Source: Naegleria gruberi (lineage: Eukaryota). Taken from it: a DNA stretch of 64,000 nt. The position numbers were made by a program, and so were the translations under genes. Shown piece after piece: positions 12,545-33,813 of this stretch (positions are counted from its first letter, which is position 1; every line of letters starts with the position of its first letter). The notes beneath the pieces are model-generated. The model saw only the letters and a program-made list of their open reading frames with translations, was not told the DNA's origin and made no database searches. The stretch lies in NCBI GenBank assembly GCA_000004985.1, contig GG738892.1; one strand, written 5' to 3'.

Positions 12545-12616
12545 CTCCCATGCCGGGAATTGAACCCGGACCTCCTGGGTGAAAGCCAGGTATCCTAGCC
12601 ATTGGACTACACGGGA
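12545..12616 (-). tRNA. tRNA-Glu (anticodon UUC), copy 1
   Basis: Minus-strand read TCCCGTGTAGTCCAATGGCTAGGATACCTGGCTTTCACCCAGGAGGTCCGGGTTCAATTCCCGGCATGGGAG folds as a cloverleaf: 7-bp acceptor TCCCGTG/CATGGGA, anticodon loop CTTTCAC. No encoded CCA. Confidence 0.85.
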
Positions 12617-15683: not shown

Positions 15684-15763
15684 GGTGTGTTGACCGAGTG
15701 GTTATGGTGCTGGCTTCAGGTGCCAGTGGGTAAAACCGCGTGGGTTCAAATCCCACACACATC
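15684..15763 (+). tRNA. tRNA-Leu (anticodon CAG), long variable arm, copy 1
   Basis: GGTGTGTTGACCGAGTGGTTATGGTGCTGGCTTCAGGTGCCAGTGGGTAAAACCGCGTGGGTTCAAATCCCACACACATCA. Anticodon stem CTGGC/GCCAG, loop TTCAGGT; class II variable arm; T-arm GTGGG TTCAAAT CCCAC. Confidence 0.85.
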
Positions 15764-15770
15764 AGTTCAA

Positions 15771-18582: not shown

Positions 18583-20980
18583 ATGAAAAGACAATATGAT
18601 ATGATTAATACTTGTTCTTCTGATCAAGATGAAGATGATGATTGTACAGAAACTTGTTCTTCCGAAGATGAACAATATGAACTTGCTTTAAAATATTTTA
18701 ATGGGACTAATGTTGAAACAAATTATTCTAAAGCTTTCGACTTGTTTTTGAAGAGTGCGGAACAGGGAAAGACAGAATCACAACATCAAATTGGCTATTT
18801 TTATCATTGTGGATTGGTGGTGGAGAAGGATTTATCTAAAGCAATGGAATGGTATCTGAAAGCTGCCGAAAAGGGATTTTCAGAATCACAATTTTCAATC
18901 GGAATTTTGTTTTATAAAGGAGTTGAAGTGGAGTATTCGAAAGCTATGGAATGGTTTTTGAAAGCAGCTGAAAATGGTCTTTCGAAAGCTCAGTGTAATC
19001 TTGCTGCTTTATATGAAAATGGATGGGGAGTTGAACAAGATTATTCGAAAGCTATGGAATGGTATTTAAAATCTGCTGAACAGGAAAATTCAATAGCTCA
19101 ATGTAATATTGGAAATATATTTGCAAATGGAAAGGGAGTTGACCAAGATTATTCTAAAGCATTCGAATGGTATCTGAAAGCTGCTAAAAATGGTGATTTA
19201 ACTGCTCAATCATTTGTTGCATCATCATTTGCAACTGGAAGAGGGGTCAAAAAAGATTATTCTAAAGCATTCGAATGGTATTCAAAAGCAGCTGAAAATG
19301 ATTATTCTCATTCAGTCTACAGTATTGTAAATGGAAAAGGAACAGACAGTGATGCAAAATTCAATCTAGCTTATTTATACGAAACTGGATCAGGTGTTCA
19401 AAAGAACATCCTGAAAGCATTCGAATGGTATATGAAAGCAGCTCAAGATGGTCATCTAAATGCACAATTTTCCATTGCAGGATTTTATAGAGATGGATTG
19501 GTAGTTCAACAAAATTTTTCAAAGGCAGTAGTATGGTATTTGATAGCTGCTGAAAATGGTCATATGGACGCACAGTTCAATGCTGGTTATGCTTTTGAAA
19601 ATGGTTTAGGAGTTCCACAAGATTATTCGAAAGCTATGGAATTATATTCTAAAGCTGCTGAACAGGGGAGTGCACGTGCTGAATGTAATATTGGAAATAT
19701 GTATTTGTATGGGAGAGGTGTTGAAATAGATTATTCGAAAGCTGAGGAACATTTATTGAAGGCCTCTGAAAGAGGTGATGCATTATCACAAGTTAATGTT
19801 GCATATTATTACATGAATGGAGTATTCGATAGAGATTACACCAAAGCATTCAAATACTTTCTTGAGGCTGCTAAAAATGGTGAGCTAACCGCCCAGAATA
19901 ATGTTGCAAAATTATTCGAATTGGGCCTAGGAACTGAGAAAAATTTGAAACAAGCTCTATTTTGGAATTCAAAAAAATTGAATGATAGTTGCAGTTTTCA
20001 ATTTATTGAGGATCCGTATGACCAATTTGCTTTAAAAACTTTCAGACCAGTAATAGACAGCGAGATGAGTTTAATTACAGATTCGAATGAGATGGTGATT
20101 ATTCGATTTGAAACTAGAGATTTTACAATCTTGAAAAACAAGGTGATCACAAGCAAATACTTGACAACAATGATGAATTCTAATTGGATTGGTTTCAATT
20201 CGAAAGGAGAATGGTCAACTTGTACTTGATTTACAAACTATTGAACATGAAATATTTCAGAGAAATGTCAATCACATTGAAATATTTGAGAAATATGTTG
20301 AATACTTGACAAATGATACGATACCATCTAATTTTGATACTAAAATGGAATTAATTGAATTATCAAGATATTTACAGGACGATTCATGTATTTTTAAAAT
20401 TGTGAAATATTCTGACGTTTTGACAAGATTTTACATTTCATTTTATTTTGACAAAACGGAACAGCTTGACATTCCAATAGTTAGTTGTTATATAATGGAT
20501 ACTACATTCAACACGTGCGATATTTCACCTCATGCAATTGAGAAATTATTGACAGGACCTGATTTATCACCAATTGCCAAGAGGAAGATTTTAGATCTAG
20601 TTCCATTAAATAATTTGGGAACCAATTCGACAATATTCGAAGGTAAGTAATCGAATCAAATTTAATTACCAACCAGCTCGATAGATAACAATACAATTCA
20701 CACAATTTTTTCACCAATTGAAGTTAAAAAGGAAATTAGAATTGATACGAAATCAATTATTCTAGAATTAGAAATCGAAGAAACTGGAATGATAATCAAA
20801 AGCGATGATTTGAGTAATTCCCAGATTTACATTCAATTAAATAATGATAATGATCACGTTGGGTTTTGGTTATTGGTCAATCCTGGAAAAACTATTTTGA
20901 AATTACCAAAATATGATTTTGACACAATTGATATGATTATTATTCCAACCGTAACTGCAATACTGGACCAAGAAAATTGA
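18583..20980 (+). CDS. Sel1-like repeat (TPR-like) protein with a C-terminal non-repeat extension. Multi-exon, model uncertain: 18583..~20142, ~20215..20643, 20724..20980
   Basis: There are about 12 tandem Sel1 repeats (DYSKAMEWYLKAAEQG...AQ.NLG.LYENG.GV.QD). The main ORF stops at 20229 but a second frame is open from 20177. A 72-nt candidate intron GTGATC..aaag (20143..20214) joins them in frame. A clear GTAAGT donor at 20644, an 80-nt intron and acceptor gaag|TT lead to a final exon ending at TGA 20978-20980. Confidence 0.55.
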
Positions 20981-21049: not shown

Positions 21050-21130
21050 TGATGTGTGTGGGATTTGAACCCACGCGGTTTTACCCACTGGCACCTGAAG
21101 CCAGCACCATAACCACTCGGTCAACACACC
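21050..21130 (-). tRNA. tRNA-Leu (anticodon CAG), copy 2, inverted relative to copy 1
   Basis: Exact reverse complement of the 15684..15763 gene (plus-strand text tgtgtgggatttgaacccacgcggttttacccactggcacctgaagccagcaccataaccactcggtcaacacacc). Confidence 0.85.
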
Positions 21131-21291: not shown

Positions 21292-24200
21292 TTATTTAAA
21301 AACTGAAACTCTGTTGTTAGTCTCCTCACAAATATACAATTCTCCTGTGTGATGATCGACATCAAAACCAGTTGGTGAAAATAATTGACCGTGCTTACTT
21401 CCCTTCTCACCAAATCTCTTGACAATTCTCAAACAACGAGTCTTTCCATTTCTTGGTCCAAGTCTATCAATTAACAAATCATCATAACTTTCAAATTGTC
21501 CCAATTCATCCTTACTCTCCACAAAATTACAATCCTCATAGACATTGATTCGATGCCAATTATGAACTGACAAGTACAAGTATCCTGTAGATCTTTCAAA
21601 ATAAATATAATTGGTGGCCCATTCAATTTCTGGTGAAACACTTAGACTTCTCATATCATGAATTAATTCTCCTTCCCTTGTAAAGACCTTAATGGAACCA
21701 CTTGTAAAATCATAGGCCATTAAATGACCATCATTATTAAAGTCAACTCCCCAACCAGAATTAATTTCCTTAATGGTTCCAATAGTTCTGAGAATTTTAC
21801 CATCATGACTAATAACAGCAATTCTATTATTACACATGTCAGTAACGTAGACATCACTAGTCTCTGGATCGACAGTGAGACATGTTGGAGTAGAAATTTC
21901 ATCTGGATAATCTCCTGCAGATCCTCTTCCTGCTTGCCAAACTTGAACTTTTCCATCCCATGTATATTTGCTGTTTGTGTTGGCATTTCAATTAATTGTA
22001 ATGTAGCAGTAAATGCAATCAATTGTAAGAAAAATAAATAATACATACTAAACCTTATTAGTTGAAGTTCCTGATACAAGCAAAGTCTTATCATTGTAGT
22101 CAAATGCAATAGATCTACTTCCACCTGGAACTGAAAAGTGATACAAATATTTTTTAGTAGCACAATCAAAAACTTGAATTCTACCATTCAAATAATCTGA
22201 AACAAATGCTTGTCTTGTCATGGCATTAATTTTCACATCGTGTGGCAAGCTAAAAAGGCCAGGATCTCTTTGATGTCTAGAGTAATTTCCATACTTGTCT
22301 CCAAGCTTTCCAACATATTCAATCTTTCCAAATAGGCTGAATGTCTTTCTCTTGAAAACCGGTTGAGCAAGAGCTGAGGATTTGGTTGAGTTTGGAGGGG
22401 GCAATTCTTTAAGACCAGTATGGAATTTGGTCTTGTTTGACTTGTTGTGGAGAGTCAAGTGAAGTTCACAGAAATAGGCATCACAATCAGAGCAGTGATG
22501 AGTGGCATTGGTTTTTTCCTCTGCTTCATCAAAACATTTGGTACAATGAGGTACAGAACTTTCCTTCTTCAATTCTACCAAATCATCAACATGGAATTTG
22601 GTCTTGTTTGCCTTATTGTGTAGTGTCAAGTGTTCTTCACAAAAGTGGAGAGCACATGTCTTACAAAAGTGAGTAGCTTGCGTTTGTTCTTCATCATCGA
22701 GACACTTGTCACAGAATCGTTCGCCACTTGAGGAATCATTTGTTTCGGCAAGTGGAATCTTGGTTTCAACTGTTTCAATCAAATTTCCTCTCAAATATAA
22801 ATTAGTAGTGATTAATACATCTTTTCCATCGCCAGCTTGTTCCAACTCAATTGGAATGGATTTTTCATACTTTCCATTTTCTGGAATTAATTGAACTTGT
22901 TCTTCAAATGTTTTTGTGACAAATCTTGTGTCAAATGTAATGACATAGTGTACAGGGTTCGGAGTATACTTTCCATATGGAATTCCAGAAGCATTATTCA
23001 AGGTAATTTTCAATGTTGCTGCCTTTCCTGGTCTGAGAGCAGTTGGATCTTGAGAGATGGATTCAATACTGACAGGATATTGAACCTTAAAAGTTTTTGG
23101 AAGGGTTGAATTGTTAAATGTCTTTCCAAGAAGAGTTGCTTGTGAAATGATGGTAATTTCAGATTCCAAGCCACTACTACCATTCTCTCCTACAGTACCA
23201 TGAAAATCGTGTGGAACGACAATTTCCTCTTGAGGAGCAAGACTTGTATTCAATGTAAAACTTTCCTGACCAGCATTTGGAAGGAATTTGAATTTAGAGC
23301 TAGCCAAACTGGTAAAGCTAATCACTACTCCACTTGGGCATGTCAATTTTCCTTCATTCTTAATTTTGAGACCTGTAATCATGACAGCTTCACCTGGTTC
23401 AATAATTCCATCATTGGTGTTTACATCAGTTGTTTTCAATTCAAAATCTGAAACAACCAAATCATACATTTCACTTGCTTGCTCTAAAACCTGTCCAGTT
23501 TTAGAATCTACAATTACAAACTTCTTAACTCCTGATTGACCAGATTTTGATCCAGGTTCGCCAGCCTTGCCTTCCTGACCAGACTTACCACGATCTCCCT
23601 TTTGGCCATCCTTTCCTTTTTCTCCTGCCTTCTTTCCAGCACCATTTAGTGAGCTAGGATCTCCTCCTGAACCAGCATGTCCACGAGAACCTCCCAAACC
23701 AGCTGATCCAGCTCTACCTTGTTCACCTCCCATACCAGACATTCCTCCTCTACATTCAACTTGTAAAAAGATGAGATATTCTGGGTGGGATGTAGTTACA
23801 ATGACTTGATTGGTTGCATCTCCTCCATTAGCTCCATTTCCACCACTTTAGTTATTATTATTAAATTAGAAATTATTAGAAATAATTTAACAAATAATGG
23901 AAGATGAAAAAACTTACTCTCCACCATTACCTGAATGTCCACCATTTCCTCCTCTGCCACCATTTCCACCATTACCACCACTTCCTCCACTTTCACCTTT
24001 TCCTCCCTTTCCACCATTGCCACCTGATTCATTCAGAGAAGTGAAAAGTAGGGTCAGTACAACTCAATGAAATAGGATAATTAGAAACTTACCACTACCA
24101 CCTTCGCCTCCTGCTCCTCCGTCACCACCTCTACCACCATTTCCTCCATCACCTCCATTAGCTCTGAAAATCAACACGGATTCAGAAGCATCTTTAATAT

Positions 24201-24729
24201 CCAACAAGACACTTTCATTTGCAATATTTGATGACATGTTAAACTTTAACAAATTATCACTCTGGGATTCGATTGTAATTTGCACACTGGTGTGAGGACA
24301 CGATTTACCATCACTAGCATGACTGCCATTCAATCCATCAGTACCATTTCCTCCATTTCCTTTTGTGATTTCACAGAATTCCATAAGATGATGAATTTAA
24401 TGTCAACATATATATATTGAAATCATGTGCAATGATAACAAACCTCCAGAATCACCATCATCTCCTCTACCACCTCCACTCTTTCCCAAATGACCCGATC
24501 TTCCACTCTAAATTTGTTTCAACAACATATTAATATTTACATTTGATCATCAATCATATGATCAACAATACATTAAAATTTCCTTAAATACTATTGTGTG
24601 ATAGAATTACAAACCTCTCCTTTTGATCCTTTTTGTCCAGCTTGACCATCTGAACCATCCGAACCAACCTCACCACTCCAATCAATTATTTTAATCGAAT
24701 CAGTACATGAAGTGGCCATTTTGTTTTTT
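21292..24729 (-). CDS. collagen-like (Gly-X-Y) + 2x B-box zinc finger + NHL-repeat protein, 6 exons (~1000 aa): join(21292..21970,22049..23845,23918..24023,24092..24359,24444..24507,24607..24729)
   Basis: Exon 1 is ATG...GQAGQKGSKGE | GTTTGT. Exons 2-4 are small and encode SGRSGHLGKSGGGRGDDGDSGG, GNGGNGTDG...ANGGDGGNGGRGGDGGAGGEGGSG and GNGGKGGKGESGGSGGNGGNGGRGGNGGHSGNGG, all with Gly at every third position, separated by 64-116-nt introns with GTAAGT or GTTTGT donors. Exon 5 continues GGNGANGGDAT...GEQGRAGSAGLGGSRGHAGSGG...GKAGEPG, then two B-box-like zinc fingers (CDKCLDDEEQTQATHFCKTCALHFCEEHLTLHNK...; CTKCFDEAEEKTNATHHCSDCDAYFCELHLTLHNK). After donor ta|GTATGT, a 78-nt intron and acceptor aacag|C, exon 6 carries NHL repeats (DVYVTDMCNNRIAVISHDGK..., LYICEETNNRVSVFK). 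All phases are consistent. Exact boundaries are +/-1 nt because my count of the printed sequence near 24300 disagrees with the ORF track by one base. Confidence 0.6.
23846..24729 (-). repeat. coding Gly-X-Y triplet repeat (collagen-like), split over four small exons of the gene above
   Basis: Minus-strand codons GGN GGN AAT/AAG/GAT repeated. Read-through ORFs in the track (24064..24384) show GNGGNG...GGDGGNGGRGGDGGAGGEGGSG. Confidence 0.6.
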
Positions 24730-25010
24730 GCTAAATTCGACTTGTAAAACATTATTCAATATTTATGCTCAATCAAACATGAAAGAACTTGCTAGGAAAT
24801 TGCAAATAACCGAATTGGAACACTAATAGTAAGGAGCGCCAATCAAGGTAAAAAATTCGTTGTGGGGGCGATTAAACATAATATTGTTGTCTAAGGCTAA
24901 AATGCGCGTTTTTGATTGTTATCGTGAGAAAATTTTGTACCAACATCGGATCAAGCCTTTTTAATTTTTTCAAAACTTGAAAAAAACAAATCAAAGACTA
25001 AGAGAGCAAA
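24730..25010. promoter_or_regulatory. inferred bidirectional promoter between divergent B-box/NHL genes
   Basis: 281-bp gap between the ATG of the minus-strand gene (24727-24729) and the ATG of the plus-strand gene (25011). No motif verified. Confidence 0.3.
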
Positions 25011-26480
25011 ATGCCACCAAAATTCTGCGCCAAATGTCTCGATGAAGAGGAAGAAGTTGCAGCAACTCATCACTGTCCAACATGTGATCTGTTAATGTGT
25101 GAGGTCCATTTGATGTTACACAATAAGGTGGCCAAGACTAAAGGACATGCTGCCGATGTGGTGGAAGTTAAAGAGGAAGAGGAAGAAAAGAAACAAATAA
25201 TGTGTCAAATGTGTATGGAAGATGATGAGGAAACAGCTGCCTTGTACTTTTGTCCTATTTGCAAGTTGAATATCTGTGAACTTCATTTGAATTTGCATAA
25301 CAAGATGAGCAAGACAAAGGGTCACGAAAAGGAGATCAAGATATTGGGAGAGGACGGATTGAGTACTTGTGCTCATTGTCAAGCTCATTGTCCTGATGAT
25401 TTTGTTGATGCTGTCTTTGCCTGTAGAGAATGTAAAACTAATTTGTGTTATCATCATGCTAAAATTCACACTCTTGCTTGTAATCATGCCAAAAATCCAA
25501 AACCTCAAGGTGAAGGATGTTCCCAACTCGATACCAACTCGTTCCGTCTATTGGCCGATAACAAGTTTAAACAATTTGCAGGAGATTTTGAATTTGTTGG
25601 ATTTTTGGGATCAAGTAATGAAGCTCAGGATGAATTTTTCTTGAAAGGAAGTGAAGGAAAGCAACCTCAACAATTCAAAAAACCAAATGGATTGAAAATT
25701 AACATTTATACAAAGGAAATATTTGTTTGTGACTCTCAAAATTGTAGAATTCAAGTTTTTGATTTGACCACAAGAGCATTCAAACGTGAAATGAAGTTTT
25801 TCAGCTTTTCACCACTTCATCTTGATTTTGATCTTTCAGATGACACTATGATCATTAGTGGTGATAATCAAACAGTTGCCAAGTACACAATGGATGGTAG
25901 AACTTTAATTTGGGAATATGGTAAACCAAACAATTATACTGCAACCGATGAGACATTTGGTAATTGTCGTGGTATTGTTGTAGATAATGAAGGGGATGGA
26001 AATGTTTACATTGCCGAGTGGAATAACGATAGAGTGAAGGTATTGACAAGAGATGGCAAGTTTGTCAAACACTTTATTGAAAAGCAATTATGGACTGCTC
26101 CTCAAGGATTGGCTATTAGAAATGGAAATTTACTAGTCAATTCTCGTTGTTATGGTCAAGGACAAGTTGCTGAATTGAGTCTTCCTGATGGAGAATTTAT
26201 TAAGAGTTATGGTAAAAAGCAAGACCTGGATCCTGAACTCCAAGATTCATGCTACATGTGTGTTGAACGATTTTCAGGAAATATTGTCATTGCGGATACT
26301 GACGATTCGTGGACCTCTCCAATTAAATTCATCAAGGGTCAAAGTTTACTCAAACTTGAAAAACCAAGAGGGCAAGGAAAGTTACATTTCAGTGCCCCAA
26401 CTGGCATTGACATTGATCCTTACACTGGTTTATTGTATGTATGCGATCGTGAAAATAATCGTGTTCAAATATTGAAATAA
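25011..26480 (+). CDS. 3x B-box zinc finger + NHL-repeat protein (489 aa), single exon
   Basis: ATG start. Three Cys/His modules (CAKCLDEEEEVAATHHCPTCDLLMCEVHLMLHNK..., CQMCMEDDEETAALYFCPICKLNICELHLNLHNK..., CAHCQAHCPDDFVDAVFACRECKTNLCYHHAKIH). The C-terminal six-blade NHL signature ends in LLYVCDRENNRVQILK. Confidence 0.8.
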   Translation: MPPKFCAKCLDEEEEVAATHHCPTCDLLMCEVHLMLHNKVAKTKGHAADVVEVKEEEEEKKQIMCQMCMEDDEETAALYFCPICKLNICELHLNLHNKMSKTKGHEKEIKILGEDGLSTCAHCQAHCPDDFVDAVFACRECKTNLCYHHAKIHTLACNHAKNPKPQGEGCSQLDTNSFRLLADNKFKQFAGDFEFVGFLGSSNEAQDEFFLKGSEGKQPQQFKKPNGLKINIYTKEIFVCDSQNCRIQVFDLTTRAFKREMKFFSFSPLHLDFDLSDDTMIISGDNQTVAKYTMDGRTLIWEYGKPNNYTATDETFGNCRGIVVDNEGDGNVYIAEWNNDRVKVLTRDGKFVKHFIEKQLWTAPQGLAIRNGNLLVNSRCYGQGQVAELSLPDGEFIKSYGKKQDLDPELQDSCYMCVERFSGNIVIADTDDSWTSPIKFIKGQSLLKLEKPRGQGKLHFSAPTGIDIDPYTGLLYVCDRENNRVQILK

Positions 26481-26578
26481 ATTTGGTAGCTCTGTAAATT
26501 GTATATTATTAATCCAATTACAAAATCTTATTAAAATAATAATTTGTCAAGTTATTAAATACAAAATGAATTGGCAAT

Positions 26579-27817
26579 TTATTTATAAATAACAACCTTA
26601 TCTTCATCACAATTGACATACAAATAGCCATTAGTTGGGTCAATATCCATACCATATGGTCTGAATGGTCTTTCTCCTAATTGAGTTGAGCAACCAGTTG
26701 CTGTAGCCATTAATACTTTGCCATCTTTTTCAGTTAACTCGTAGAGAGTCAATTTCTTAGAGGACGGTTCAGACATGATCAAGTTGCCAGTACACTTTTC
26801 TACTATACAATAAATTGGAGGATTACAGAATGCATTCAGGGTGGAATTCTCATATCCAAAAACCTTATTAACAAATACTCCATCCTTTGTAAATAATTGA
26901 ACTCCTCTCTTGTGATATGTCTTGTTGCAATAGACAAGTAAATTCTTATTGTCGGCTGTCAACCCAATACAGTAAGGATCGTAAATTTCAGCAATGTCGC
27001 TTCCAATCTCTCCCTTCATTGTTCTTAAATATTGACCTGCACTGGAGAAGACTTGAATTCTTGAATTGAAACAATCAGCAACAAATACAGAACCATCCAA
27101 AGGATCGACCACACAAGTAGTATGATCAGAGAATCTGTCATTACTTTCACCTCTTGATTGATCAAATTTCCACACAACTTCACCACTCTCAACTTTAATT
27201 TTGTAAATATTACAACCACAACACAAGATCATTGCTTCATCATTATCACACAAGCACATCCAACGAGCAGTGGAAGGAGCCTTGATCGTTCTCTTTGGCT
27301 CTCTAGTCTTGCTATCAAAAACAGCAATCATACTATATTCATAAGACATGTAAATCTCTTGATTCTTGGCACTCACTTTAACATCAAATGATTTTCTAGT
27401 GCCAAGAGTTTGTTTTTCAATTTCCAAAGTACCAACAAGTGTGAAATTTCCACTAAATGGAACATCACCTCCCTTTCCAATCACTCTAATTTCTGGAGTG
27501 TGTGATTTACTCAGAGTTGAAATCTTGTGCAACTCGACATGATTTTTACATAAATTTAATTTACATTCATGACAATGATGACTAGCCTTCAAACATGTAT
27601 CCAACAATTTCTTCTCCTTCATTTCCAAACACTCATCACACATGTAAACAGGTTTTGAATTAATATCAATCACTTGATCCGCATGCCCGGAAGTCTTCTT
27701 TGCAGCATTATGAAGCTCCAAATGACTCTCACAAAAATAGAGAGCACATTGTGGGCAGTGATGAGAGGCTGGTGTTGTCTCCTCCACTTGTTTACACTTA
27801 TCGCAACATTGAACCAT
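26579..27817 (-). CDS. 2x B-box zinc finger + NHL-repeat protein (412 aa), single exon
   Basis: ATG start. CDKCKQVEETTPASHHCPQCALYFCESHLELHN... and CDECLEMKEKKLLDTCLKASHHCHECKLNLCKNHVELH..., then NHL repeats (FVADCFNSRIQVFS, LYVNCDEDKVVIYK). Confidence 0.8.
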   Translation of the reverse strand: MVQCCDKCKQVEETTPASHHCPQCALYFCESHLELHNAAKKTSGHADQVIDINSKPVYMCDECLEMKEKKLLDTCLKASHHCHECKLNLCKNHVELHKISTLSKSHTPEIRVIGKGGDVPFSGNFTLVGTLEIEKQTLGTRKSFDVKVSAKNQEIYMSYEYSMIAVFDSKTREPKRTIKAPSTARWMCLCDNDEAMILCCGCNIYKIKVESGEVVWKFDQSRGESNDRFSDHTTCVVDPLDGSVFVADCFNSRIQVFSSAGQYLRTMKGEIGSDIAEIYDPYCIGLTADNKNLLVYCNKTYHKRGVQLFTKDGVFVNKVFGYENSTLNAFCNPPIYCIVEKCTGNLIMSEPSSKKLTLYELTEKDGKVLMATATGCSTQLGERPFRPYGMDIDPTNGYLYVNCDEDKVVIYK

Positions 27818-33250: not shown

Positions 33251-33482
33251 TTTTTTTTAAATTATTTGTGTTTGGTTGACTTGATGGAATTTTTGTTTAT
33301 TTATGGTGTTATTTTGATTGAATGGAAAATTGATTGTAATTATCAGATCAGTTTGGATTTTGGGAAGAGAATGAGGAATGGATGATGATGAGAAGTAGCA
33401 GCAGAGAAGTAAATAGTTTAGAATAAAAAATTCACATTTCTCAGCTATTTATATGAAAAGAGAATATGATATAAAAAGGATT

Positions 33483-33554
33483 CTCCCATGCCGGGAATTG
33501 AACCCGGACCTCCTGGGTGAAAGCCAGGTATCCTAGCCATTGGACTACACGGGA
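33483..33554 (-). tRNA. tRNA-Glu (anticodon UUC), copy 2, identical to copy 1
   Basis: The same 72-nt sequence as 12545..12616 (plus-strand text ctcccatgccgggaattgaacccggacctcctgggtgaaagccaggtatcctagccattggactacacggga). The flanks are unrelated. Confidence 0.85.
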
Positions 33555-33813
33555 ATCTTGTTAACTTTTTCAATTGATTAATTATGAATTTTCTTCCACA
33601 CAGATTCTTTTTGGAAACGGATAAAGGAATTTTTGTAATGGACTATTTAAATATTGTAATCATTTTAACAAATGTCAAGGCTTACATGTAACATTTCGAG
33701 ATTTTTACTTTGGAAATCTTCCATCACAGATTCTTCACAAAATAAAATATCTTCAAAAAAAACAACTAAACCGCCACTTTCGAATAAAATCAATTATTTG
33801 AAAAAAGGACGAA

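Follow-up and report, generated by a model that had tools for sequence, protein, structure and literature searches.

The TRIM-NHL proteins of animals (class VII: TRIM2, TRIM3, TRIM32/Thin, TRIM71/LIN-41, Mei-P26, and NHL-2) carry B-boxes upstream of a C-terminal six-bladed NHL beta-propeller and are central regulators of stem-cell fate and mRNA control. This subfamily (subfamily C) has been listed as animal-only, with TRIM37 alone being broadly eukaryotic (Marin, 2012; PMC3503706). The Drosophila protein Brat lacks a RING and regulates mRNAs via its NHL domain, the RING of Mei-P26 is dispensable in reporter regulation, and NHL propellers bind RNA by a positively charged top surface (PMC9070667). 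A cluster of three adjacent genes in the heterolobosean Naegleria gruberi combines the same two modules. These genes, numbered 1 to 3 in order of position and together called the trio, lie in a 64,000-nucleotide stretch of contig GG738892.1 (assembly GCA_000004985.1), the whole of which was analyzed and is referred to as the window. Their architecture, tandem fingers of the B-box1 type joined to an NHL propeller with neither a RING nor a coiled coil, appears to be an old, pared-down relative of the TRIM-NHL layout of animals and specific to its lineage.

A six-frame scan of the window with profile hidden Markov models (HMMs) recovered exactly seven finger modules (2 + 3 + 2) and three propellers, and none outside the trio (Table 1). 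An original prediction, made by a model from the letters of the DNA alone, had described three adjacent genes that each join B-box-type fingers to a C-terminal NHL propeller, and this description is confirmed. Genes 2 and 3 are identical at every residue to XP_002673203.1 and XP_002673279.1 in an exact-sequence look-up, and both are deposited under the name 'predicted protein,' while the product of gene 1 is labeled 'DUF7932 domain-containing protein' in UniProt (D2VRW2). The coordinates first assigned to genes 2 and 3 were exact, but the ATG of gene 1 lies at 24719 rather than 24729. The 'fungus-like genome' of the original prediction has to be set aside, as the genes match those of N. gruberi exactly, an amoeboflagellate of the Heterolobosea. 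The window itself is AT-rich (31–38% GC) and densely packed with genes, which have long open reading frames (ORFs) and few short GT..AG introns; tRNA genes are dispersed among them. Literature searches found no relevant publications on the trio or its DUF7932, and the PADLOC defense-system models gave 0 matches. The trio comprises ordinary, intact, already deposited, and unstudied Naegleria genes, and does not constitute a new kind of system.

The fingers of the trio are, to judge from their sequences, genuine but divergent B-boxes of the B-box1/ANCHR type, marked by a histidine at the sixth ligand. This assignment is made because of the ligand pattern, matches below threshold to the Pfam family ANCHR-like_BBOX, a match to the first B-box of TRIM28, and a profile search that recovers bona fide B-box arrays. 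None of the eight ligand positions varies among the seven modules (56/56 ligands), and the pattern reads C-x2-C-x12-19-C-x2-C-x4-C-x2-H-x3-H-x5-8-H. This is the B-box1 formula, the reference spacing for B-box1/ANCHR-like fingers being C-x2-C-x7-12-C-x2-C-x4-C-x2-[CH]-x3-4-H-x4-9-H. The first loop has 12 residues in five of the seven modules, and exceeds the textbook range in module 3 of gene 2 (x15) and module 2 of gene 3 (x19). An extended signature, A-[TS]-H-[HF]-C...C-E-x-H-L-x-L-H-N-K-x3-K-T-K-x-H, is also present in five of seven. In the consensus proposed in the original prediction, the LHNK..KTK.H portion is limited to these five modules, and the cysteines that precede C-E-x-H are spaced C-x4-C, not C-x3-C.

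Among protein sequences in the Protein Data Bank (PDB), a profile of the modules matched the B-box1 of TRIM28/KAP1 best (6o5k, E = 1e-3), followed by FYVE. A profile of the tandem fingers, used in an HMM scan of 1.84 billion representative proteins, gave 107 matches, and the strongest of these outside Naegleria were proteins of 4–13 tandem fingers (E = 1e-60 to 1e-11). In Pfam these arrays are clear B-box proteins, with E-values of up to 9e-60 for ANCHR-like_BBOX and of 1e-26 to 7e-37 for zf-B_box. A paralogue from elsewhere in the N. gruberi genome, NAEGRDRAFT_65049, clears the ANCHR-like_BBOX cut-off (29.2 vs. 27 bits). In an AlphaFold2 (AF2) model of the gene 2 product each module comprises two short strands and helices, with a predicted local distance difference test score (pLDDT) of 73–91 in modules 1 and 2.

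Against PDB sequences the three propellers match TRIM-NHL domains (Thin, TRIM71, TRIM2/3) best or nearly best, with E-values of 1e-13 to 1e-20; for gene 2, phmmer gives 5e-20 for Thin and about 1e-15 for TRIM2/3/71. Other six-bladed propellers are more distant. PAL matches the three at 1e-3 to 1e-8, many orders weaker than TRIM-NHL, and PknD matches the propellers of genes 1 and 2 at 2e-4 to 7e-4 only. The AF2 model of gene 2, computed from an alignment of 11 family sequences, has a mean pLDDT of 77, rising to around 90 across most blades. It contains 24 strands arranged as six four-stranded blades, with an N-terminal strand (residues 195–198) that completes blade 6 and closes the ring. When this model was compared with the PDB by Foldseek, the best 22 matches were all TRIM-NHL domains (Thin, TRIM71, TRIM2, TRIM3, Mei-P26, and Brat). 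The alignments span about 290 columns, with target-normalized TM-scores of 0.76–0.80 for isolated NHL domains and 0.56–0.58 where the chain is a longer one with filamin and NHL. The sequences of genes 1 and 3 can be aligned along the whole propeller. The six-bladed NHL propeller of the original prediction is therefore supported by the model in gene 2, and by sequence matches to TRIM-NHL domains in genes 1 and 3. A Pfam check that had been proposed at the same time was successful in part: the NHL family (PF01436, cut-off 20 bits) is matched above its cut-off in gene 2 and in the last exon of gene 1 only, not in gene 3, and its zf-B_box component failed for all three proteins.

Several parts of the canonical TRIM layout are missing from the trio. 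Pfam scans of the three proteins matched no RING or U-box family; in genes 2 and 3 the first finger begins at residue 5–6, and the glycine-rich N-terminus of gene 1 has no Cys/His cluster. There is no TRIM_CC match in Pfam and no long helix in the gene 2 model, and the last finger is joined to the propeller by a linker of about 13–35 residues, too short for a TRIM coiled coil to fit. The absence of RING and coiled coil, as first predicted, is upheld on both counts. All modules have B-box1 spacing, and no B-box2 is found in the trio.

Metazoan TRIM-NHL proteins, the closest among solved structures, thus share with the trio the order of B-boxes and NHL propeller, but the Naegleria proteins differ from them in having no RING, coiled coil, Filamin domain, or B-box2, in carrying two or three tandem His-type B-box1 fingers with only the short linker described above, in a domain identity of 16–25%, and in their heterolobosean host. 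Brat is the best functional analogy: it too combines B-boxes with NHL repeats, has no RING, and works by means of the NHL domain, with no ligase activity involved. It differs from the trio in retaining a B-box2 and a coiled coil, and its NHL domain matches the trio propellers at 1e-5 to 1e-9, more weakly than those of Thin or TRIM71. The nearest relatives of the finger pair outside the Heterolobosea are the tandem B-box arrays of invertebrate type, which are likewise RING-less and tandem and have the same spacing as the trio. Unlike the trio, in which the sixth ligand is always His, these arrays have Cys at this position, carry 4–13 fingers per protein, and have no NHL repeats, often being found with fn3 domains or AIG1-like GTPases instead. 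In plants, BBX/CONSTANS-like proteins likewise have tandem B-boxes at the N-terminus and no RING, and use them to interact with other proteins. Their ligands are spaced differently, CCT takes the place of NHL at the C-terminus, and the finger-profile search did not retrieve them. There are also the heterolobosean and environmental relatives described below, including the metagenomic proteins P0176 and P0010, in which the His-type B-box1 signature (..C-x2-H-x3-H..KTK.H) is followed by an NHL-like propeller.

The three genes are paralogues, as originally proposed. Pairwise BLASTP comparisons give 25.5–28% identity over 443–473 residues, with E-values of 2e-41, 3e-36, and 4e-32, the latter two being those of gene 3 against genes 1 and 2, respectively. 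The corresponding scores of 114–150 bits exceed those of NHL proteins outside the family (82 bits at most), so that the trio genes are closer to one another than to unrelated NHL proteins. Identity is unevenly distributed, at 43–53% in the tandem B-boxes and 28–33% in the propellers. The 'recent local duplication' of the original prediction does not fit a whole-protein identity of only 25–28%, nor does it fit a relative in Naegleria lovaniensis that scores against gene 1 as high as gene 2 does. The members of the trio are only loosely one another's best matches within the family, and the remaining paralogues of N. gruberi group more tightly, with 40–46% identity. The tandem duplication is an old one, with the fingers held under constraint while the propellers diverge; the common finger consensus reflects this constraint, and not the youth of the duplication.

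Comparison with a second strain is available for gene 1. A second-strain copy of the gene (P0066) is near-identical to it, and the metagenomic contig L001 shows 98.5% identity. Relative to this contig the indels are of 6 nucleotides (nt) in exon 5 and of 3 and 8 nt in predicted introns, and exon 5 differs by 6 synonymous and 5 non-synonymous changes, a ratio of non-synonymous to synonymous differences per site (pN/pS) of about 0.23. Indels that respect the frame, together with this ratio, fit an intact gene under constraint.

The family extends well beyond the locus. Eleven of the proteins found with the finger profile are recognized as well by a propeller HMM derived from the trio; one is the second-strain copy P0066. 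The named relatives are NAEGRDRAFT_65049, NAEGRDRAFT_47029, NAEGRDRAFT_78767, NAEGRDRAFT_68017, and NAEGRDRAFT_53360 from N. gruberi, C9374_000220 from N. lovaniensis, and ABK040_005426 from Willaertia magna, the others being metagenomic. There are therefore at least five N. gruberi paralogues outside the trio, and these, with the N. lovaniensis and Willaertia relatives, support the lineage-specific expansion suggested at the outset. One of the paralogues, NAEGRDRAFT_78767 (D2V6C6), is already named 'B box-type domain-containing protein' in UniProt. It has an accession adjacent to that of NAEGRDRAFT_47029 on one 665-kb scaffold (P0105 and P0171, respectively), and the two may be a second tandem pair. 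The deposited 603-residue model of NAEGRDRAFT_47029 has at its C-terminal end a 2OG-Fe(II) oxygenase domain which is missing from a 392-residue metagenomic representative, and the deposited model is therefore probably a merged gene.

Several relatives are more elaborate than the trio. Matches to zf-B_box, which are B-box2-like, were found in the Willaertia and metagenome relatives only. In Willaertia ABK040_005426 a His-type B-box1 and a zf-B_box-type finger are followed by a linker of about 200 residues, rich in Lys, Asn, Glu, and Leu, and then by NHL repeats; by its composition the linker looks like a coiled coil. The protein P0176 (781 residues; contig L002, 4760–7105; Joint Genome Institute (JGI) metagenome 3300057222) combines, in a single ORF, a RING, a His-type B-box1, a zf-B_box finger, a helical linker, a Filamin domain, and NHL repeats. 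It is a full-length member of a metagenomic cluster annotated 'TRIM71' by JGI. Its contig is intron-less and has 36% GC, and the gene adjoins single-ORF PIG-N and Pus1 genes, features that do not look metazoan. P0010 (contig L003, 2771–4708; JGI metagenome 3300050206) has a B-box, a Filamin domain, and six NHL repeats but no RING. Its contig has 54% GC, genes only tens of bases apart, and ORFs mostly without a Pfam match, and its source could be either a giant virus or a protist with a compact genome. Relatives with a B-box2, with a coiled-coil-like linker and/or a Filamin domain, and in one case with a RING tie the family to the TRIM-NHL layout, and this suggests that the Naegleria proteins may be reduced members of a TRIM-NHL-like lineage that exists outside animals.

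With regard to function, a binding or regulatory role is a more reasonable reading than RING-type ligation, as the original prediction had supposed, in view of the missing RING and the analogy with Brat. The interpretation adopted here, with a probability judged only slightly better than even, is that the trio are old tandem paralogues of a cytosolic heterolobosean B-box and NHL family whose members would serve as RING-independent binders, adaptors, or regulators. From the domain identities we infer that each B-box1-type finger would bind two zinc ions through its eight invariant Cys/His ligands, and that the tandem fingers may be a constrained module through which the proteins self-associate or dock onto a shared partner. 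The NHL propeller, with its six blades, would be a fast-diverging module of ligand recognition, and given the rate at which it diverges, each paralogue would read a different RNA or protein target. Without a RING these proteins would act as binders, adaptors, or regulators in the manner of Brat, whose NHL domain alone carries most of its activity, and not as autonomous ubiquitin (E3) ligases. In gene 1 the B-box and NHL unit would in addition be tethered to an N-terminal half made up of glycine-rich, DUF7932, and immunoglobulin (Ig)-like regions.

A number of observations weigh against this interpretation. The Pfam family zf-B_box (PF00643) matches none of the three window proteins, and ANCHR-like_BBOX (PF22586), although matched by all seven modules, is matched weakly, with a best score of 21.7 bits (E = 2e-4) where 27 are required. 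A search with gene 2 of 5.8 billion proteins placed secreted bacterial NHL proteins at the top, at 82–65 bits. A RING-bearing TRIM-like protein (P0009) follows at 65 bits, and other matches with RING, B-box, Filamin, and NHL domains, at 64 bits or less, come from large, probably animal, assemblies. As bacterial NHL proteins outscore TRIM-type proteins (82 vs. 65–75 bits) in so large a database, the propeller alone is no proof of TRIM-NHL ancestry; none of the bacterial and large-assembly NHL proteins from this search match the finger profile. The propellers are mildly acidic overall, with a net charge of -3 to -6 and an isoelectric point (pI) of 5.6–6.0, which does not favor an RNA ligand. Finally, there are reports of RING-less TRIM proteins whose B-boxes support ubiquitination, so that the lack of a RING is no proof that ligase activity is lacking.

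This last point leads to the possibility that the trio are cryptic E3 ligases, in which RING-like cross-brace B-box1 fingers recruit a ubiquitin-conjugating (E2) enzyme while the NHL propeller presents the substrate. Such a role would suit fingers that are of the B-box1 type, that find their best PDB match in the TRIM28 B-box1, and that are better conserved than any other part of the paralogues. A metagenomic relative with like fingers has a true RING upstream, which would make the ancestral context that of a ligase, and weak E3 activity is reportedly associated with the B-box of MID1 and with RING-less TRIM16. Even in animals, however, the E3 activity of B-boxes is weak and disputed. In the trio no RING or U-box was detected, and every module has His as its sixth ligand where invertebrate B-box arrays have Cys; altogether a ligase function seems improbable. 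A little more weight, though still a low one, can be given to the view that these are sequence-specific RNA-binding regulators of the post-transcriptional kind exemplified by Brat, LIN-41, and Mei-P26, with the top faces of the propellers reading short motifs and the paralogues serving different sets of mRNAs. RNA-binding NHL domains (TRIM71, Brat, Mei-P26) are indeed among the nearest solved structures, as are Thin and TRIM2/3, and Brat works in this way without a RING (PMC9070667). The acidic propellers do not fit this view well, the identity to RNA-binding NHL domains is only 16–25%, and many NHL propellers bind proteins instead.

Two further explanations are considered very unlikely. According to one, the propeller would be an enzyme of the six-bladed NHL/SGL/arylesterase/PAL type and the fingers would serve only for localization. 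Gene 2 does have weak Pfam matches to SGL (9e-6, just under the cut-off) and Arylesterase (3e-5), and PAL is found among the PDB matches, but all are far weaker than those to TRIM-NHL and are typical of the cross-matches seen between six-bladed propellers. The propellers are, moreover, only 28–33% identical to each other, and across the 11 family members only an Asp and a Gly are invariant in the propeller region. According to the other, the genes would be lineage-specific duplicates that no longer function, either because they are decaying or because they are not expressed. The database names ('predicted' or 'hypothetical protein'), the lack of literature, and the strong divergence of the paralogues are consistent with decay. 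Yet all frames are intact, the five introns of gene 1 are canonical, every one of the zinc ligands is kept, and, as noted above, indels relative to the second strain keep the frame at a pN/pS well below 1. RING-independent binding or regulation by an old paralogous family remains the interpretation that best accommodates these observations.

Gene 1 is the most complex member of the trio. Its exons (minus strand) are at 24719–24615, 24507–24444, 24359–24093, 24023 or 24062–23918, 23845–22049, and 21970–21292, and the deposited model, when reconstructed from the window, is identical to the deposited protein (P0185). The five introns are all GT..AG. The model built here, of 1005 residues, and the deposited one, of 1018, differ at intron 3 only (24024–24092). 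In the 1005-residue model this intron is 69 nt long and ends in ..GAATCAG, whereas in the deposited model it is 30 nt long (GTAAGT..TTGAG); both are in frame. The 30-nt version retains a hydrophobic segment, VVLTLLFTSLNES, amid the glycine repeats, and the 69-nt version drops it. A pseudogene with a 1-nt frameshift at the last intron (22048–21971) was also considered. The junction there is canonical (TA|GTATGT...ACAG|C), and the GTATGT donor at 22048, together with the deposited protein, which reads '..TSTNKVYKYTW..' across the junction, rules this out.

The first approximately 550 residues of gene 1 had been passed over in the original prediction. The order of domains is a glycine-rich region, DUF7932, an Ig-like sandwich, two B-boxes, and the NHL propeller. 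The N-terminal half (22747–24719, residues 1–547) is unrelated to B-box or NHL sequences, and DUF7932 and the sandwich share one exon with the fingers. The glycine-rich region is broken up by short beta-like segments; it has weak Collagen and Scl-like matches, all under the cut-off, and the NCBIfam scan gave collagen-like noise only. A word-index homologue search with DUF7932 and the sandwich found nothing at E ≤ 10, a result that is uninformative because the near-identical P0066 and P0185 were also missed.

Genes 1 and 2 are arranged head-to-head. The spacer between them, given as 281 bp in the original prediction, is in fact 291 bp because of the position of the gene 1 ATG. The 'shared divergent promoter' that was proposed for this spacer does not stand out as a feature, since such spacing is normal for this gene-dense window and a similar head-to-head spacer, of 326 bp, separates gene 3 from an ESCO-type acetyltransferase gene to which it is unrelated. 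The two head-to-head spacers have no motif in common except A/T runs. Genes 2 and 3 are tail-to-tail and 98 bp apart. Co-regulation of genes 1 and 2 is possible.

Table 1. Positions, in the window, of the three genes, their domains, and the spacer between genes 1 and 2.
Feature	Position	Strand	Description
Gene 1 (NAEGRDRAFT_81014 / XP_002673278.1 / D2VRW2)	21292..24719	minus	Six exons; 1005 aa (model built here) or 1018 aa (deposited)
Gene 1 glycine-rich region (aa 1-296)	23500..24719	minus	Exons 1-4 and start of exon 5; 31% Gly, GGxGG and collagen-like G-x-x runs
Gene 1 DUF7932 (aa 312-437)	23077..23454	minus	Pfam PF25560, E = 5.8e-16, 59.5 bits vs. cut-off 27; model positions 4-130 of 130
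Gene 1 seven-stranded Ig-like beta-sandwich (aa 439-547)	22747..23073	minus	
Gene 1 B-box 1 (aa 559-599)	22591..22713	minus	Eight-ligand pattern; HMM 81 bits
Gene 1 B-box 2 (aa 615-656)	22420..22545	minus	Ligand pattern and HMM
Gene 1 NHL propeller (aa 683-1005)	21295..22341	minus	Interrupted by last intron; Pfam NHL 22.0 bits in last exon; TRIM71 3e-15, Thin 4e-13
Spacer between genes 1 and 2, head-to-head	24720..25010	.	291 bp, from ATG positions
Gene 2 (NAEGRDRAFT_51768 / XP_002673203.1 / D2VRW3)	25011..26480	plus	Single exon, 489 aa; 3 B-boxes and NHL propeller; exact match
Gene 2 B-box 1 (aa 6-46)	25026..25148	plus	Ligand pattern and HMM; beta-beta-alpha element in AF2 model
Gene 2 B-box 2 (aa 65-105)	25203..25325	plus	Ligand pattern and HMM; best ANCHR-like_BBOX stretch, residues 65-106
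Gene 2 B-box 3 (aa 120-159)	25368..25487	plus	Divergent: x15 loop, x5 before last His; HMM 54.6 bits; pLDDT 53-69
Gene 2 NHL propeller (aa 195-489)	25593..26477	plus	Pfam NHL 2.3e-15, 56.2 bits; six blades in AF2 model
Gene 3 (NAEGRDRAFT_71727 / XP_002673279.1 / D2VRW4)	26579..27817	minus	Single exon, 412 aa; 2 B-boxes and NHL propeller; exact match
Gene 3 B-box 1 (aa 5-45)	27683..27805	minus	Ligand pattern and HMM
Gene 3 B-box 2 (aa 60-106)	27500..27640	minus	Ligand pattern and HMM; longer first loop
Gene 3 NHL propeller (aa 120-412)	26582..27460	minus	Pfam NHL 15.6 bits, sub-threshold; Thin 4.9e-18, TRIM71 5e-16

Other features of the window were noted in passing. Just upstream of the trio, at 18583–20650 on the plus strand, is a gene for a protein with 12 Sel1 repeats (Pfam, 1.8e-107). 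An ORF at 20189–20650 overlaps this gene and may extend its C-terminus in a different frame, by way of an intron or a frameshift. tRNA-Glu(TTC) and tRNA-Leu(CAG) are present in two copies each, standing singly between protein genes (12545–12616, 33482–33555, 15684–15764, and 21050–21130), and one tRNA-Leu lies 161 bp 3' of the stop codon of gene 1.

Should the resemblance between the trio and the TRIM-NHL proteins be convergent, the locus would represent only a lineage-specific domain shuffle in a published genome. If these are the same two modules, their presence in a free-living excavate would push the partnership of B-box and NHL outside animals, the more so given the relatives with a B-box2, a coiled-coil-like linker, a Filamin domain, or even a RING. 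A broader proposal can be put forward tentatively, and is on balance doubtful: the pairing of B-box and NHL would be no animal invention, the Heterolobosea and compact-genome microbes of metagenomes together spanning the full series, from RING, B-box1, B-box2, coiled-coil-like linker, Filamin, and NHL down to bare B-box and NHL. The TRIM-NHL design would then either be early-eukaryotic or have been exchanged between animals on one side and protists, or the giant viruses of protists, on the other. In Naegleria, a branch without the RING may have grown into a handful of regulators, each specific for its ligand and possibly binding RNA. The trio would offer a minimal RING-free version of the design for studying the roles of B-boxes and NHL propellers by themselves.

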